Program-made: the position numbers and the translations under genes
Part shown: in pieces, positions 14,336 through 35,564 of the stretch
How positions within the stretch are numbered: the stretch's first letter is position 1
Layout of the letters: each line of letters begins with the position of its first letter
From: Escherichia coli
GTDB lineage: Bacteria; Pseudomonadota; Gammaproteobacteria; Enterobacterales; Enterobacteriaceae
Reading direction: 5' to 3' (one strand)
Assembly: GCF_003334315.1 (NCBI RefSeq)
Contig: NZ_QOWR01000034.1
Length of the DNA stretch: 49,379 nucleotides
Notes under the pieces: model-generated
The model's database searches: none
The model's input: only the letters and a program-made list of their open reading frames with translations
Told to the model about the DNA's origin: nothing

Positions 14336-15121
14336 TTAGCTGGCCTGCTTTTTCATCATACTGAGAATAAATAACAGTGCCGCACATAGCACCACCGACG
14401 GACCCGCCGGCGTATCGTAAACCGCGGAAAAGGTTAAACCGCCAGTCACTGCCACCATCCCCACCAAAACAGCGACACCAGCCATCTGTTCCGGCGTGCG
14501 GGCAAAGCGACGCGCAGTAGCAGCAGGAATAATCAGCAACGAAGTAATAATCAACGCACCGACAAATTTCATCGCTACACCAATCGTCAATGCCGTCACC
14601 AGCATCAATAACAATTTCACGCGCTGTAATTTCACACCATCAACAAACGCCAGATCCGGGCTAATCGTCATCGACAGCAAATTGCGCCATTGCCAGAACA
14701 AAATAGCCACCACGATGACCACGCCAATGGCGATGGAGATGAGATCTTCCGGCGTCACTGCCAGCAAATCACCGAACAAGTAAGCCATCAAATCAACACG
14801 AATATTAGACATCAGACTAACGACCACCAGGCCCAGCGACAGGGCACTGTGCGCCATAATCCCTAATAACGTGTCGATCGCCAGCTGTGGACGCTTCTCC
14901 AGCCATACCAGACCGCCCGCCAGCAGCAGCGTAACGGCAATCACCGCATAGAATGGATTCACGTCCAGCAACAAACCAAACGCGACGCCAAGTAATGAGG
15001 CATGAGCCAGCGTATCACCGAAATAAGACATACGACGCCAGACTACAAACGAACCCAGCGGACCCGCGGCACAGGCGAGCATGATCCCGGCTAACCAACC
15101 GGGAAATAATAATTCAATCAT
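14336..15121 (-). CDS. znuB: High-affinity zinc ABC transporter permease
   Basis: 261-aa polytopic membrane protein; start overlaps the znuC stop (ATGA at 15118-15121). Confidence 0.95.
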
Positions 15122-15873
15122 GAGCGATCATTTCCCCGACGCAAAACAATTCGTCCCTGTAAATCGTGACGATGATTATGATGATGGCGATAGATACCCA
15201 GTTGTTCAGCACCACGAGGACCAAACATTGAAATAAACTCCGGATGCAGGGAAACAACTTCCGGTGTGCCGGAACAACAAATGTGGTGATTCAGGCACAG
15301 CACTTCATCGGTTTTTGCCATCACCAGATGCAGATCGTGAGAAACCATTAAAACGCCACAATCCAGTTCGCGACGCAACTGGTCAATAAGGTCATATAAC
15401 GCCACCTGGCCATTTACATCCACGCCTTGAGTGGGTTCATCCAGCACTAATAATTGCGGGCGATTTAACAATGCTCGCGCTAACAGTACACGCTGCGTTT
15501 CGCCACCCGAGAGCTTTTGCATCGGTGCGTTAATCAGGTGGCCGGCCTGGACACGTTTCAGTGCAGGCAAAATATCTTCTTTATGTGTGCCAGGGCGTAA
15601 GCGTAAAAAACGGTTTACGGTCAGTGGCAACGTGGTGTCGAGATACAGCTTCTGCGGTACATAGCCGATGCGTAGTTTTCCGTTGCGCTTGATAACCCCT
15701 TCATCGGGTGTTACCAGCCCGAGCACTACCCGTACCAGTGTCGACTTACCTGCGCCATTTGGCCCAAGTAAAGTCAAAATTTTTCCAGGTTTAAGTTCCA
15801 GCGACACATCAGAGAGGACGCGGCGTTGGCCAAAAGAAACCGAGACATTTTCCAGGGAAACCAGACTTGTCAT
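15118..15873 (-). CDS. znuC: High-affinity zinc ABC transporter ATPase
   Basis: 251 aa; Walker [13 protein letters not shown] signature LSGGETQR, Walker B LLVLDEP. Confidence 0.95.
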
Positions 15874-15899
15874 GTTAATTTTAGTCTTGCAGTAGTCAT

Positions 15900-15922
15900 G
15901 AAATGTTATAATATCACACTTC
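15900..15922. promoter_or_regulatory. Zur operator in the divergent znuCB / znuA control region
   Basis: GAAATGTTATAATATCACACTTC is an AT-rich dyad resembling the Zur box GAAATGTTATA-N-TATAACATTTC, centred between the znuC and znuA starts. Confidence 0.7.
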
Positions 15923-15951
15923 TCATATTCATTACGATGATTGGTCGCATT

Positions 15952-16884
15952 ATGTTACATAAAAAAACGCTTCTTTTCGCAGCATTATCCGCCGCTCTCT
16001 GGGGCGGTGCAACACAGGCCGCAGATGCCGCCGTTGTCGCTTCGCTTAAACCCGTTGGGTTCATCGCTTCTGCCATTGCTGATGGGGTAACAGAAACGGA
16101 GGTTTTACTGCCTGACGGCGCTTCAGAACATGATTATTCACTGCGTCCATCGGATGTAAAACGCTTACAGAACGCGGACTTAGTCGTTTGGGTTGGCCCG
16201 GAGATGGAAGCGTTTATGCAAAAACCGGTAAGTAAATTACCAGAAGCGAAGCAGGTAACGATTGCGCAGCTTGAAGATGTGAAACCGCTACTGATGAAAA
16301 GTATTCACGGCGATGATGATGATCACGACCACGCGGAAAAAAGTGACGAAGATCACCATCACGGCGATTTCAACATGCATCTTTGGCTTTCCCCAGAGAT
16401 AGCGCGGGCTACAGCGGTTGCAATCCATGGAAAATTAGTGGAACTTATGCCGCAAAGTCGAGCCAAACTTGACGCCAACCTGAAGGATTTTGAGGCACAA
16501 TTAGCCTCAACCGAAACGCAGGTTGGTAACGAGCTCGCGCCGCTCAAGGGGAAAGGTTATTTCGTTTTTCACGATGCTTACGGCTATTTCGAAAAACAGT
16601 TTGGACTGACACCGCTTGGTCATTTTACCGTTAACCCTGAGATTCAACCTGGCGCGCAGCGTTTACATGAAATAAGAACACAGTTGGTTGAGCAAAAAGC
16701 AACCTGCGTTTTTGCTGAGCCACAGTTCAGGCCAGCGGTCGTTGAGAGCGTCGCACGAGGGACATCCGTTCGTATGGGAACGTTGGATCCCCTGGGGACG
16801 AATATCAAACTGGGTAAAACAAGCTATTCAGAATTCCTGAGTCAATTAGCCAACCAGTATGCGAGCTGCCTGAAAGGAGATTAA
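15952..16884 (+). CDS. znuA: Periplasmic zinc-binding protein ZnuA
   Basis: Start trimmed to ATG 15952 ([23 protein letters not shown] signal peptide), 310 aa; His/Asp-rich loop [19 protein letters not shown]. The track's upstream extension runs across the Zur operator. Confidence 0.92.
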
Positions 16885-16899
16885 TGAGGAAGTGATTAC

Positions 16900-18222
16900 G
16901 TGCAACAGATAGCCCGCTCTGTCGCCCTGGCGTTTAATAATTTACCGCGACCACACCGCGTTATGTTGGGGTCGCTCACCGTTCTTACTCTGGCCGTCGC
17001 TGTCTGGCGGCCCTATGTTTATCACCGCGATGCCACGCCAATTGTCAAAACCATTGAGCTGGAACAGAACGAAATTCGTTCGCTCTTACCTGAAGCCAGT
17101 GAGCCGATTGATCAAGCTGCACAAGAAGATGAAGCCATTCCTCAGGACGAACTGGATGACAAAATCGCCGGTGAAGCGGGCGTGCATGAATATGTTGTTT
17201 CCACTGGCGATACGCTAAGCAGCATTCTCAATCAGTATGGTATTGATATGGGTGATATCACCCAACTGGCTGCGGCCGACAAAGAATTGCGTAACCTGAA
17301 AATCGGTCAACAACTCTCCTGGACATTAACCGCGGACGGCGAACTGCAGCGCCTCACCTGGGAAGTGTCTCGTCGTGAAACCCGAACCTATGACCGTACT
17401 GCCGCTAACGGTTTTAAAATGACCAGCGAAATGCAGCAAGGAGAGTGGGTTAACAATCTGCTGAAAGGTACCGTCGGGGGGAGCTTTGTTGCCAGCGCCA
17501 GAAACGCCGGTTTAACCAGCGCCGAAGTGAGCGCAGTGATTAAAGCCATGCAGTGGCAAATGGATTTCCGCAAACTGAAAAAAGGCGATGAATTTGCGGT
17601 ATTAATGTCTCGAGAAATGCTTGATGGTAAACGTGAGCAAAGCCAGCTGCTGGGCGTACGTTTGCGTTCAGAAGGTAAAGATTATTACGCTATCCGCGCT
17701 GAAGATGGCAAATTCTACGATCGTAACGGTACTGGTCTGGCGAAAGGATTCTTGCGATTCCCGACGGCGAAACAGTTCCGTATCTCGTCTAACTTTAACC
17801 CGCGTCGTACTAATCCGGTGACCGGTCGCGTTGCACCACACAGAGGTGTTGATTTCGCCATGCCACAAGGTACGCCAGTGCTTTCAGTGGGTGACGGTGA
17901 AGTGGTGGTTGCCAAACGCAGTGGTGCAGCAGGTTATTATGTAGCTATTCGTCATGGTCGCAGCTACACCACGCGTTATATGCACTTGCGCAAGATTCTG
18001 GTGAAACCGGGACAGAAGGTGAAACGTGGCGACCGTATCGCGCTTTCCGGTAATACCGGACGTTCAACCGGGCCGCATCTGCACTATGAAGTATGGATAA
18101 ACCAGCAGGCCGTAAACCCGCTGACGGCAAAACTGCCGCGTACCGAAGGGCTGACCGGCTCCGATCGTCGCGAATTCCTGGCACAGGCCAAAGAGATTGT
18201 GCCGCAGCTACGGTTTGATTAA
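16900..18222 (+). CDS. mepM: Murein DD-endopeptidase MepM (YebA), LysM plus M23 peptidase
   Basis: 440-aa ORF starting at GTG 16900; LysM-like segment ([13 protein letters not shown]) and M23 motifs ([15 protein letters not shown]). Confidence 0.9.
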
Positions 18223-25742: not shown

Positions 25743-25778
25743 GACGACAAATTTGTAATCAGGCGAGAGAAAACTCTG

Positions 25779-33196: not shown

Positions 33197-33427
33197 TTAT
33201 TTAAGTTTGGGCTCGTAAGGTAAACGTGACAGATTGACCGAAGCCAAACGGTGGGCAATAAGCCGCTCGCGAAACCAGCTGCGCAAATGTTCAGGCTGTT
33301 CACGTTCAACCGCTTCAGCGATCACCGGCATATTGTAGCGTTCTTTAAATGCCACCCCGGCCGCCGCCAAATCGACATTCACTTTATCCATTTCTGTTTG
33401 ATCCAGTTTAGCCAGATTCTTCAGCAT
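33197..33427 (-). CDS. holE: DNA polymerase III theta subunit
   Basis: Start trimmed to ATG 33427 ([27 protein letters not shown]...), 76 aa; GGAG-containing SD upstream. Confidence 0.9.
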
Positions 33428-33565
33428 TCTTAATCTCCTCATCATTCGCGGGCAAAAGTTACTAAGAGTGAGCCAGGATGGCAAGCCGGAATTGATGATC
33501 CTCGACTCAGACATTAGACAAGGTTATGCTCTGTAAAAAAGTTATTACAAAAAGGAATAGATAAT

Positions 33566-33940
33566 ATGGCTTCAACTGCACGCTCCCTTCGCTACGCGCT
33601 GGCAATCCTGACCACTTCGTTGGTGACACCTTCCGTCTGGGCACATGCGCATTTAACGCATCAGTATCCTGCGGCAAACGCGCAAGTGACAGCTGCACCG
33701 CAGGCAATCACTTTAAACTTCTCGGAAGGTGTGGAAACAGGATTCAGTGGTGCAAAAATCACGGGGCCAAAAAACGAAAATATTAAAACATTACCGGCGA
33801 AGCGAAATGAGCAGGACCAAAAGCAACTGATTGTTCCACTGGCCGATTCGCTGAAACCCGGAACCTACACCGTTGACTGGCATGTTGTTTCGGTGGACGG
33901 GCATAAAACGAAAGGACACTACACCTTTAGCGTGAAATAA
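33566..33940 (+). CDS. yobA: Periplasmic copper-binding protein, CopC family (YobA)
   Basis: 124 aa; signal peptide ending AWA, with predicted mature N-terminus HAHLTHQYPA, consistent with a CopC Cu(II) site using the N-terminal His. Confidence 0.85.
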   Translation: MASTARSLRYALAILTTSLVTPSVWAHAHLTHQYPAANAQVTAAPQAITLNFSEGVETGFSGAKITGPKNENIKTLPAKRNEQDQKQLIVPLADSLKPGTYTVDWHVVSVDGHKTKGHYTFSVK

Positions 33941-33943
33941 ATC

Positions 33944-34816
33944 ATGCTGGCGTTTACCTGGATCGCGCTGCGATTTATCCATTTCACCTCGCTGATGCTG
34001 GTTTTTGGCTTCGCAATGTACGGTGCCTGGCTGGCCCCCTTAACGATTCGTCGCTTGCTGGCGAAGCGTTTTCTGCGTTTACAACAGCACGCTGCCGTCT
34101 GGAGTTTGATCAGTGCCACTGCAATGCTCGCCGTTCAGGGCGGGTTGATGGGAACGGGATGGACAGATGTATTTTCGCCAAACATTTGGCAGGCTGTTTT
34201 GCAAACGCAGTTTGGTGGCGTCTGGTTATGGCAAATTGTTCTCGCCCTCGTAACGTTGATCGTCGCCCTTATGCAACCGCGGAATATGCCACGTTTGCTG
34301 TTTATGCTCACTACCGCGCAATTTATTCTGCTGGCGGGAGTGGGGCATGCGACGCTGAATGAAGGGGTAACGGCGAAAATCCATCAGACTAATCACGCGA
34401 TTCACCTGATTTGTGCGGCGGCGTGGTTTGGGGGATTACTGCCGGTGCTCTGGTGTATGCAACTCATCAAAGGCCGTTGGCGACACCAGGCTATTCAGGC
34501 GCTGATGCGTTTTTCCTGGTGCGGGCATTTTGCGGTGATCGGCGTACTGGCAAGCGGCGTGCTTAATGCATTGTTGATTACCGGATTTCCCCCCACACTT
34601 ACGACTTACTGGGGCCAACTCTTATTGCTCAAAGCTATCCTGGTGATGATTATGGTGGTCATCGCGCTGGCTAATCGTTATGTTCTTGTACCGCGCATGA
34701 GGCAGGATGAAGATCGTGCGGCACCCTGGTTTGTGTGGATGGCTAAACTCGAATGGGCGATAGGTGCGGTAGTGCTGGTGATCATCAGCCTGCTTGCGAC
34801 TCTCGAACCTTTTTGA
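33944..34816 (+). CDS. yebZ: CopD-family inner-membrane protein (YebZ)
   Basis: 290-aa polytopic membrane protein starting 4 nt after the copC-like stop. Confidence 0.85.
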   Translation: MLAFTWIALRFIHFTSLMLVFGFAMYGAWLAPLTIRRLLAKRFLRLQQHAAVWSLISATAMLAVQGGLMGTGWTDVFSPNIWQAVLQTQFGGVWLWQIVLALVTLIVALMQPRNMPRLLFMLTTAQFILLAGVGHATLNEGVTAKIHQTNHAIHLICAAAWFGGLLPVLWCMQLIKGRWRHQAIQALMRFSWCGHFAVIGVLASGVLNALLITGFPPTLTTYWGQLLLLKAILVMIMVVIALANRYVLVPRMRQDEDRAAPWFVWMAKLEWAIGAVVLVIISLLATLEPF

Positions 34817-34828
34817 TGGATTACGAAA

Positions 34829-35170
34829 ATGATGAAAAAAAGTATTCTGGCGTTTCTGTTACTCACCAGTTCTGCAGCGGCGCTGGCGGCACCGCAGGTG
34901 ATTACCGTCAGCCGTTTTGAAGTGGGTAAAGACAAATGGGCGTTTAATCGCGAAGAGGTGATGCTGACTTGCCGACCGGGTAATGCTTTGTATGTCATCA
35001 ACCCAAGTACCCTCGTGCAGTATCCTTTAAACGATATCGCACAAAAGGAAGTTGCCAGTGGGAAGACTAAAGCCCAACCCATTTCGGTGATTCAGATTGA
35101 TGATCCTAACAATCCCGGCGAAAAAATGAGTCTGGCACCGTTTATAGAACGAGCTGAAAAACTCTGTTAA
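34829..35170 (+). CDS. yebY: DUF2511 periplasmic protein YebY
   Basis: 113-aa ORF with signal peptide, third gene of the yobA-yebZ-yebY unit; terminator follows. Confidence 0.8.
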
Positions 35171-35198
35171 TTACCTAAAATAGCCTTTTGATTTCCAA

Positions 35199-35241
35199 TA
35201 AAAAAACCGCCTCAGTTCTTTCACCAGAACGGGCGGTTTTT
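35199..35241. terminator. Bidirectional terminator after yebY (and probable RyeA 3' end)
   Basis: AAAAAAACCGCCTCAGTTCT...AGAACGGGCGGTTTTT, a GC stem flanked by A-run and T-run. Confidence 0.75.
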
Positions 35242-35328
35242 AACATTTAAGCTGATGACCACCGCGCTTTTTATTGACCATTTTGCACGCAAACTGGAAA
35301 ACCTGGCGTCGTCATCTATTCTTAAAGG

Positions 35329-35431
35329 GCAAGGCAACTAAGCCTGCATTAATGCCAACTTTTAGCGCACGGCTCTCTCCCAAGAGCCATTTCCCTGGAC
35401 CGAATACAGGAATCGTGTTCGGTCTCTTTTT
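35329..35431 (+). ncRNA. sdsR: Small regulatory RNA SdsR (RyeB), sigma-S dependent
   Basis: Recalled SdsR sequence matches (GCAAGGCAACTAAGCCTGCATTAATGCC...CGGTCTCTTTTT). A sigma-S-type -10 (TCTATTCTT, 35315-35323) sits upstream and a GC stem plus U-run ends at about 35431. Confidence 0.75.
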
Positions 35432-35564
35432 ATCTGTTAAAAGCCAGAAGCATTTCCTTCGCTGACTTTATAGTCAACCATAACACACACTCTACTGTCT
35501 GAGTCCAGCGTTTTTTAACATTCTTGTTAAGATTATGTGATCTTTAGCGCGGAGGAAAATATTG

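Follow-up and report, generated by a model that had tools for sequence, protein, structure and literature searches.

The yobA-yebZ-yebY locus of Escherichia coli as a probable chromosomal copper-acquisition operon

The window analyzed here is a stretch of 49,379 nt of E. coli DNA (contig NZ_QOWR01000034.1 of assembly GCF_003334315.1), and the locus under study consists of three plus-strand genes in the order yobA, yebZ and yebY. The first (33566–33940; 124 aa) is assigned, on the basis of its profile matches, ligands and conserved cleavage site, to a periplasmic CopC-type Cu(II)-binding protein; the second (33944–34816; 290 aa), on the basis of its profiles and of His135 and His154, to a CopD-family inner-membrane copper importer; and the third (34829–35170; 113 aa) to a periplasmic DUF2511 protein. 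By their coordinates, the genes are separated by exactly 3 nt (yobA-yebZ) and 12 nt (yebZ-yebY). The tight operon arrangement reported in a preliminary description of this DNA is thereby confirmed, as is its divergence from holE. The latter (33197–33427, minus strand) encodes DNA polymerase III theta in a 76-aa ORF that is identical to K-12 holE, and is separated from yobA by a control region of exactly 138 bp (33428–33565).

In K-12, the three genes are annotated as b1841 (yobA), b1840 (yebZ) and b1839 (yebY), and the locus is the same as the K-12 AZY operon (Hadley et al. 2021, PMC8689200; Palmer et al. 2025, PMC11923076). No difference from K-12 is seen in YobA or the 138-bp control region, and the gene order, spacing and terminator are alike. 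The window differs by three substitutions (YebZ I93V, YebZ T267A and YebY N81K), none of which, by comparison with K-12, falls at a residue that has been implicated in function. The locus is present in all of the 5426 complete E. coli genomes. In a set of 41 related loci, all complete ones retain the copC-copD-yebY order (yobA, 41/41; yebY, 40/41, one locus being cut short), and holE lies upstream of yobA in the divergent orientation in 39. The three genes are real gene content rather than a chance pattern, and the copper-handling identity of the operon is already published.

YobA matches the Pfam CopC family (PF04234; E = 1.5e-27 in a profile search), and scores 264.6 bits against the NCBIfam YobA equivalog NF007636, for which the cut-off is 129. 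The signal peptide occupies codons 1–26 (33566–33643), and cleavage is predicted within the motif VWA-HAHL, after VWA26, so that the mature protein would begin with HAHL at His27 (33644). This N-terminus was anticipated in the preliminary description, and it is upheld both by the junction between Ala26 and HAHL, which does not vary in any of 41 related species, in contrast to the divergent signal peptide, and by the mature CopC chains in the PDB (6tpb, 5icu, 9c14 and 7bk5), which begin at the residue aligned with YobA His27. The protein has been purified from the periplasm at about 11 kDa (PMC8689200). All three Cu(II) ligands, His27, Asp111 and His113, are present, and methionine is absent from the 98-residue mature chain (expected mass, 10,648 Da), which lacks the Met-rich Cu(I) site found in CopC/PcoC proteins of the resistance type. 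With its His-Asp-His ligands and no Met-rich site, YobA fits the Cu(II)-only class of the CopC family. The purified protein binds Cu(II) with a KD of about 3 nM by ITC, and shows no Cu(I) binding (PMC8689200); the ligands and this affinity together bear out the earlier suggestion of a Cu(II) site built from the N-terminal amine and histidine.

YebZ matches Pfam CopD (PF05425; E = 9.8e-27) and the NCBIfam CopD model NF033808 (297 bits; cut-off, 195), and has both of the conserved CopD histidines. Its Kyte-Doolittle hydropathy profile is consistent with eight helices, based on seven strong peaks and a weaker stretch near residues 50–70, which lies below the 1.5 cut-off and was assigned by eye. 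A comparison of the YebZ sequence with solved structures returned no match, and no CopD structure has been solved, although AlphaFold models of YebZ have been published. The gene starts 3 nt past the yobA stop codon and is not preceded by a Shine-Dalgarno sequence (SD duplex dG, +0.1 kcal/mol), and because of these two features its translation is likely to be coupled to that of yobA. Functional data come largely from overexpression: raising the level of YebZ raises cellular copper, and this rise is abolished by H154A and reduced by H135A (PMC11923076). In the same 2025 study, copper accumulation was dependent on YebZ, His135/His154 and glucose, and YebZ-mediated uptake was enhanced by YobA and diminished by YebY. 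The family HMM scores above curated cut-offs and the YebZ-dependent uptake, with its enhancement by YobA, substantiate the proposal that this is a copper-handling operon. The DigH paper was set aside as evidence on yebZ, which serves there merely as a deletion end-point.

YebY matches DUF2511 (PF10709; E = 5.8e-45 in the profile search), and none of the NCBIfam models matches it. Its signal peptide comprises codons 1–20, and the protein corresponds to the crystal structure 7N0J, in which the chain begins at residue 21. The fold is of the MlbQ-like alpha/beta type, with MlbQ as the only structural neighbor, and the two cysteines of the disulfide pair, Cys48 and Cys113, are present and invariant. 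The DUF2511 assignment in the preliminary description is sound; the accompanying statement that YebY has no known function is outdated, given the structure, a weak binding of copper, and a reported role as a negative modulator of uptake.

YebY might alternatively not be primarily a copper protein at all, but a periplasmic binding or immunity-type module of the DUF2511/MlbQ fold that has a conserved partner or ligand of its own and was recruited to the operon. Mature YebY evolves more slowly than its partners, with a median identity to the E. coli protein of 87% across 37 species, which equals that of HolE, compared to 72% for mature YobA and 66% for YebZ. Its affinity for copper is just 50–100 µM, and binding requires that the structural disulfide be broken. 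In addition, about half of the family members occur outside of copC/copD contexts (PMC8689200), and P2/186-like phages, PSP3 among them, carry homologues in their lysogeny operons, where the gene is flanked by cI and int (family phrog_2950). We nevertheless consider this reading rather doubtful, because every complete locus retains the gene order and the short distance to yebZ, YebZ-YebY fusions have been reported (PMC8689200), co-expression of YebY specifically lowers YebZ-mediated uptake, and deletion of yebY lowers NDH-2 activity. The effect on uptake suggests that YebY may act as a brake, a role that rests on co-overexpression.

Downstream of yebY lies an intrinsic terminator (35200–35241) with the pattern A7-CCGCC...GGCGG-T5, in which the A7 tract precedes a GC-rich hairpin and makes the terminator bidirectional, common to yebY on the plus strand and RyeA on the minus strand. 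The folding energies of the hairpin alone are -19.8 kcal/mol (plus strand) and -19.6 kcal/mol (minus strand), and the value in a 96-nt context is -20.9 kcal/mol (z = -2.85), in keeping with the strong terminator that had been placed at the end of the operon. It is kept in 40 related loci, where its interior varies but is still paired. A generic promoter/terminator scan missed it owing to an internal bulge, and the five terminator-like matches from that scan equal the chance expectation. The sRNA RyeA/SraC (35198–35469, minus strand), which is convergent with yebY, was placed by Rfam hits, the K-12 annotation and mapping to the window; its 3' end, as annotated in K-12, corresponds to position 35198, and the RNA contains the reverse complement of the hairpin. 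SdsR/RyeB (35332–35431, plus strand), identified by Rfam hits and the K-12 annotation, is antisense to RyeA. The Rfam scores at the RyeA/SdsR locus are 175 bits for RF00101 and 114 bits for RF00111.

Within the control region, two putative promoters can be proposed from conserved blocks in an alignment of 32 species. The holE promoter (33456–33484, minus strand) would consist of a -35 element TTGCCA (reverse complement of 33479–33484), a 17-bp spacer and a -10 element TAACTT (reverse complement of 33456–33461), and the corresponding blocks GATGRCAAG and A(A/C)GTTAC are conserved. The candidate yobA promoter (33502–33530, plus strand) is of the sigma70 type, with a -35 element TCGACT (33502–33507), a 17-bp spacer and a -10 element TATGCT (33525–33530). 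It has 8 of 12 consensus matches, under the 9-of-12 threshold of the scan, and its blocks TCGAC and TTAT.CT do not vary in any of the 32 aligned sequences, including two Citrobacter loci in which the sequence further upstream is replaced. Transcription of yobA would then start near 33536–33539. Readings of the conserved blocks as sigma54, sigmaE or sigmaS elements were discarded by eye for wrong spacing or lack of conservation.

The preliminary description found no recognizable metal-regulator operator in the 138-bp region, and our scans agree. There are no inverted repeats of at least 6 nt in the region. In a true CusR box (AAAATGACAA-N2-TTGTCATTTT), as verified in cusR-cusC, a 10-nt inverted repeat is interrupted by a gap of 2 nt, and no match to the CusR/PcoR box type (A)TKACAA-N2-TTGTMA(T) with three or fewer mismatches occurs in 33428–33565. 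Consensus scans of the control region for Fur, Zur, CueR, CusR, FNR, CpxR, CRP, ArcA, marbox and OxyR sites gave nothing above shuffled controls. The top match was an FNR-like TTGATGATCCTCGA (8/10), and was rejected as an FNR site, since 12% of shuffles reach the same score and there is no FNR ChIP peak (Myers et al.).

One element that has been linked to copper in print is TGTAA-N8-TTACA (33532–33549, plus strand), the position of which matches the “copper boxes at -34 and -22” of PMC8689200. Its arms are only 5 nt long and everted, and both their order and their spacing are unlike those of the CusR box. Outside of Escherichia, TGTAA is unconserved, and ATTACA changes to ATAACA (32-species alignment). 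The -34 pentamer lies between the predicted -10 element and the transcription start site, and the -22 pentamer lies in the 5' UTR, because it contains a reported MazF cleavage site in the mRNA (ACA at 33547–33549). Judged by these comparisons of sequence and conservation, the published remark does not survive.

These pentamers would be central to a reading of the locus as a copper-resistance module of the Pco/Cop type, equivalent to PcoC/PcoD and induced by copper through CusR/PcoR-type boxes at -34 and -22. YobA and YebZ are indeed homologous to PcoC/CopC and PcoD/CopD, and the two copper-box-like sites are stated in the 2021 paper and present as pentamers in the window. Such a module is nonetheless highly improbable, since the half-sites are reversed and differently spaced relative to the CusR box, one of them (TGTAA) is unconserved beyond Escherichia, the -22 site is downstream of the likely promoter rather than upstream, where an activator would bind, and YobA is without the Cu(I) site of the resistance-type proteins. 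It is also at odds with phenotype: growth of a delta-AZY strain equals that of the wild type over 0–2 mM copper, and a copA mutant is not rescued when the operon is overexpressed.

A different mode of control is suggested by a pairing site for the sRNA FnrS (33539–33568, plus strand), which covers the Shine-Dalgarno sequence and the start codon of yobA. Nucleotides 40–70 of K-12 FnrS, taken as a single-stranded segment, pair with this site at -18.8 kcal/mol, compared to -9.2 ± 2.7 kcal/mol for shuffled targets (0/1000 as good), and the sequence CATWACAAAAAGGAAT at the site is almost invariant in the 32-species alignment. A computation of full-length FnrS against 120 nt was discarded, as it yielded a long, loop-rich duplex that was meaningless. 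The yobA-yebZY operon is FNR-repressed without a ChIP peak (PMC3688515), and the FnrS targets listed as having experimental support include yobA. Together with the sigma70-like promoter, the FnrS site is the most conserved non-coding feature of the locus.

A broader proposal can be framed from these observations, in which YebY/DUF2511 is chiefly a periplasmic binding or immunity-type module with a main function other than copper, and the operon couples copper import to envelope protection, has no copper-sensing transcriptional control, and is tuned only by oxygen via FnrS. We consider it unlikely as a whole. A non-copper reading of YebY draws on the HolE-level conservation of the protein, its only structural relative, which acts in lantibiotic self-resistance, and its homologues in P2/186-like prophages; the slow evolution and the prophage homologues hint at a role beyond copper.

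Taken together, we put at roughly 80% the probability that the locus serves E. coli as a chromosomal operon for copper acquisition (AZY, for yobA-yebZ-yebY). The checks that had been proposed for it, on metal binding and deletion phenotypes, were already published in 2021 and 2025, and the phenotype reported there concerns uptake, mar activation and NDH-2 activity, not copper tolerance. In delta-AZY strains, copA-lux induction is 3–4-fold lower, mar activation is lost, and both cytoplasmic CueR and MarR signaling are lost (PMC11923076). NDH-2 activity is normal in delta-yebZ membranes, but not in those of delta-yobA and delta-yebY strains (PMC8689200), and this difference indicates that YobA and YebY have roles that do not depend on YebZ as well. 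Copper supplied by the operon serves mar activation and the activity of NDH-2 rather than copper tolerance.

The NDH-2 results can also be taken to mean that the operon mainly hands copper, on the periplasmic side, to cuproproteins of the membrane or periplasm (NDH-2, for example) instead of importing it into the cytoplasm, with YobA and YebY as chaperones and YebZ dispensable or accessory. NADH oxidation is lost in delta-yobA and delta-yebY membranes and kept in delta-yebZ membranes while NDH-2 protein levels are unchanged (PMC8689200), and “not import but delivery” was the 2021 authors' own conclusion. We regard this as a tentative possibility, because the 2025 study, by the same groups, finds the YebZ-, histidine- and glucose-dependent accumulation described above, and because the signaling lost in delta-AZY is cytoplasmic. 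Delivery and import could both take place, and the model at which the authors finally arrive has both.

For the copper-acquisition operon, the following scheme can be proposed, in which the expression steps are drawn from the present analysis and the protein steps from published experiments; gene identities, ligand residues, the FnrS pairing site and the terminator were tested here. Transcription appears to start at the weak but highly conserved sigma70-type promoter, with no recognizable metal operator, and to end at the terminator common to yebY and RyeA; yebZ is probably translated by coupling to yobA, and FnrS would block the yobA ribosome-binding site under anaerobiosis. YobA leaves the cytoplasm through the Sec pathway and is cut behind Ala26, and its new N-terminal amine and the side chains of His27, Asp111 and His113 capture periplasmic Cu(II) with nanomolar affinity; YobA then passes the copper to YebZ in the inner membrane. 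YebZ imports copper into the cytoplasm in an energy-dependent manner that needs the periplasm-facing His135 and His154, and disulfide-stabilized YebY, with its MlbQ-like fold in the periplasm, may restrain this uptake. Few routes by which copper enters the bacterial cytoplasm have been defined, and the operon is one of them; its importance is already recognized, and it ties copper to mar-dependent multidrug resistance.

The closest parallels by family are the PcoC/CopC and PcoD/CopD proteins of plasmids or Pseudomonas, which fall into the same Pfam families. In each system, a copper-binding beta-barrel protein of the periplasm works alongside a membrane protein with multiple helices. They differ in that YobA has just the Cu(II) site, there are no pcoA/B/R/S neighbors and no CusR/PcoR box at the E. 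coli locus, a DUF2511 gene is added, and AZY confers no copper-tolerance phenotype. MlbQ, the lantibiotic NAI-107 self-resistance protein of Microbispora (PDB 2MVO/6QFP), shares about 21–27% identity with YebY. It is a lipoprotein encoded with ABC transporters, whereas YebY is soluble, periplasmic and encoded with copC/copD.

In function, the operon resembles ycnKJI of Bacillus subtilis, as both use a CopC module with an N-terminal histidine that feeds a CopD membrane domain for copper acquisition. Residue 1 of the YcnJ CopC domain (9c14) aligns with His27 of YobA. In B. subtilis, the two domains are fused in YcnJ, whereas in E. coli they are encoded by separate genes that are probably translationally coupled, and the accessory protein is YcnI (DUF1775) in the former and YebY (DUF2511) in the latter. 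Dedicated repressors that respond to copper, YcnK and CsoR (as cited in PMC8689200), serve the B. subtilis system, and no operator of that type is detectable here.

The yobA-yebZ-yebY (AZY) operon consists of three plus-strand genes, yobA (33566-33940; 124 aa), yebZ (33944-34816; 290 aa) and yebY (34829-35170; 113 aa), and is divergent from the minus-strand gene holE (33197-33427). The ORF list and the sequence bear out the gene spacing given in the preliminary description, with gaps of exactly 3 nt (yobA/yebZ) and 12 nt (yebZ/yebY), and likewise the holE/yobA control region of exactly 138 bp (33428-33565). A 2.5-kb query spanning the locus finds it in all complete E. coli genomes (5426/5426), and in K-12 the genes are annotated as b1841 (yobA), b1840 (yebZ) and b1839 (yebY). 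Neither the YobA protein nor the control region differs from its K-12 counterpart; YebZ carries the substitutions I93V and T267A, and YebY carries N81K. In Citrobacter koseri NCTC10786, the yebZ frame ends at 229 aa and yebY can be aligned over residues 1-66 only; pseudogenes or errors in the assembly could account for this. Collinear mapping to K-12 would place znuA and znuCB, which serve zinc uptake, at approximately 14970-16900, some 17 kb from the copper operon, and part of cutC together with micL possibly at or just past the window start, within a few hundred bases.

The copper-handling reading of the operon is supported, both by the profile matches of its first two products to CopC and CopD and by published YebZ-dependent copper uptake. 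YobA scores 264.6 bits against the NCBIfam YobA equivalog model (cut-off 129) and hits Pfam CopC with E = 1.5e-27. Its VWA/HAHL motif makes His27 the first mature residue, and the mature CopC chains of the solved structures 6tpb, 5icu and 7bk5, as well as 9c14 (the YcnJ CopC domain), begin at the residue aligned with His27. Ala-His-Ala-His-Leu is invariant in 41 related species, while the 26-residue signal peptide is free to vary (at one locus, L011, it has 22 residues). Asp111 and His113 are present, and mature YobA contains no methionine and therefore no Cu(I) site. Mature YobA purified from the periplasm binds Cu(II) with a KD of ~3 nM, and no Cu(I) binding was found (Hadley et al., PMC8689200). 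These four lines of evidence support the predicted mature N-terminus, HAHL.

YebZ scores 297 bits against the NCBIfam CopD model (cut-off 195) and hits Pfam CopD with E = 9.8e-27, and a sequence search found no solved CopD structure. Overexpressed YebZ causes a specific, glucose-dependent rise in cellular copper, which is lost in H154A and lowered in H135A (both histidines are present here), and uptake is raised by YobA and lowered by YebY (Palmer et al. 2025, PMC11923076). In the triple-deletion strain, CueR reporter output is lower, 80-90% of mar activation is gone, and there is greater, copper-dependent sensitivity to norfloxacin, ciprofloxacin and ampicillin (Palmer et al. 2025, PMC11923076). 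Hadley et al. (2021, PMC8689200) report no role for AZY in copper tolerance or oxidative defence, and that NDH-2 activity requires YobA and YebY, not YebZ.

YebY matches DUF2511 (E = 5.8e-45) and is the protein of PDB 7N0J, whose chain starts at residue 21 and so implies cleavage at ALA/APQ. The crystal structure is MlbQ-like with a Cys48-Cys113 disulfide, and copper binding is weak (50-100 uM) and occurs after reduction only (Hadley et al. 2021, PMC8689200); the proteins of the window contain Cys48, Cys113 and Trp37. Across 37 species, mature YebY has a median identity to E. coli of 87%, level with the replisome subunit HolE (87%) and far above mature YobA (72%) and YebZ (66%) of the same genomes. 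YebY also matches phrog_2950 (E = 1.1e-29), and homologues with ~33% identity are located between the cI immunity repressor and integrase genes of PSP3 (L045, 3405-3743), SEN1, SW9 and other P2/186-like phages (matches H9-H18), a position that suggests expression in the lysogen. Given this conservation and these phage homologues, YebY may have a function that is not strictly related to copper.

The yobA promoter has been described as containing “copper boxes” at -34 and -22 (PMC8689200), which correspond to TGTAA (33532) and ATTACA (33544). We examined this claim in five ways: by a reference CusR box, a repeat and mismatch scan, pentamer order, conservation, and transcribed position. The genuine box in the K-12 cusR-cusC spacer, AAAATGACAA-TT-TTGTCATTTT, is a perfect 10-nt inverted repeat; the yobA control region contains no inverted repeat of at least 6 nt, and no match to the CusR box with up to 3 mismatches. 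The TGTAA and TTACA pentamers are in everted order with 8-nt spacing, and in the control-region alignment of 32 species TGTAA is restricted to Escherichia and ATTACA becomes ATAACA elsewhere. ACA triplets at 33547-33549 and 33921-33923 coincide with two reported MazF cleavage positions (PMC5001579), the first 19 nt before the yobA ATG and the second 23 nt before the start of yebZ; the first of these being cleaved, the -22 element is transcribed. Consensus scans of the control region for Fur, Zur, CueR, FNR, CpxR, CRP, ArcA, marbox and OxyR sites gave nothing above shuffled controls. Together with the CusR-box and inverted-repeat scans, this agrees with the earlier statement that no metal operator is recognisable. 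Elsewhere in the window, ACGACAAATTTGTAAT (25744-25759, approximately at the edd-eda junction by collinear mapping to K-12) has 2 mismatches to a CusR-type box, and matches of this kind are not above chance in number.

The same alignment suggests a putative yobA promoter. TCGAC (33502-33506) and TTAT.CT (33524-33530) are invariant and would form a sigma70 promoter with a -35 of TCGACT, a 17-bp spacer and a -10 of TATGCT. In two Citrobacter loci (L030 and L031), holE is not adjacent and the equivalent of ~33430-33493 is replaced, with promoter, 5' UTR and operon intact from ~33493 onwards, which argues that the yobA promoter is within ~70 bp of the ATG. Inside the putative spacer, CATTAKAC (33512-33519) is nearly invariant in the 32 species, above usual spacer conservation, and may serve as an alternative -10 element or as an operator not yet recognised. 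On the opposite strand, conserved GATGRCAAG and A(A/C)GTTAC fit a candidate holE promoter, TTGCCA-17-TAACTT.

The only AZY regulation with support is anaerobic translational repression. The single-stranded segment of K-12 FnrS (nt 40-70) pairs with 33539-33568 at -18.8 kcal/mol, an energy reached by 0 of 1000 shuffled targets (-9.2 ± 2.7), and the pairing site includes the ACA at 33547-33549. CATWACAAAAAGGAAT (33543-33558), which spans the Shine-Dalgarno sequence, is invariant in the 32 species. The operon is FNR-repressed with no FNR ChIP peak and was assigned to the FnrS category (Myers et al., PMC3688515), and a benchmark set of FnrS targets with experimental support includes yobA. The yobA Shine-Dalgarno sequence is AGGA (-5.6 kcal/mol) and that of yebY is weak (-3.1 kcal/mol); yebZ lacks one (+0.1 kcal/mol) and begins 3 nt past the yobA stop, so it is likely to be translationally coupled to yobA.

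Downstream of yebY, an A7-hairpin-T5 structure (35200-35241) folds about equally well on both strands (-19.8 and -19.6 kcal/mol). The 272-nt sRNA RyeA/SraC, mapped from the K-12 annotation to 35198-35469 on the minus strand, converges on yebY and has this hairpin, as the reverse complement, at its 3' end; yebY and RyeA therefore share one bidirectional terminator. Forty loci keep the A-run, the CCGC...GCGG stem base and the T-run, and the stem interior is variable yet paired. SdsR/RyeB (35332-35431, plus strand) is antisense to RyeA directly downstream of yebY, and each of the six genus-level representatives tested has both RNAs after yebY.

The experiments proposed in the preliminary description have largely been done already (Hadley et al. 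2021; Palmer et al. 2025), and AZY is an already known, experimentally characterised system.
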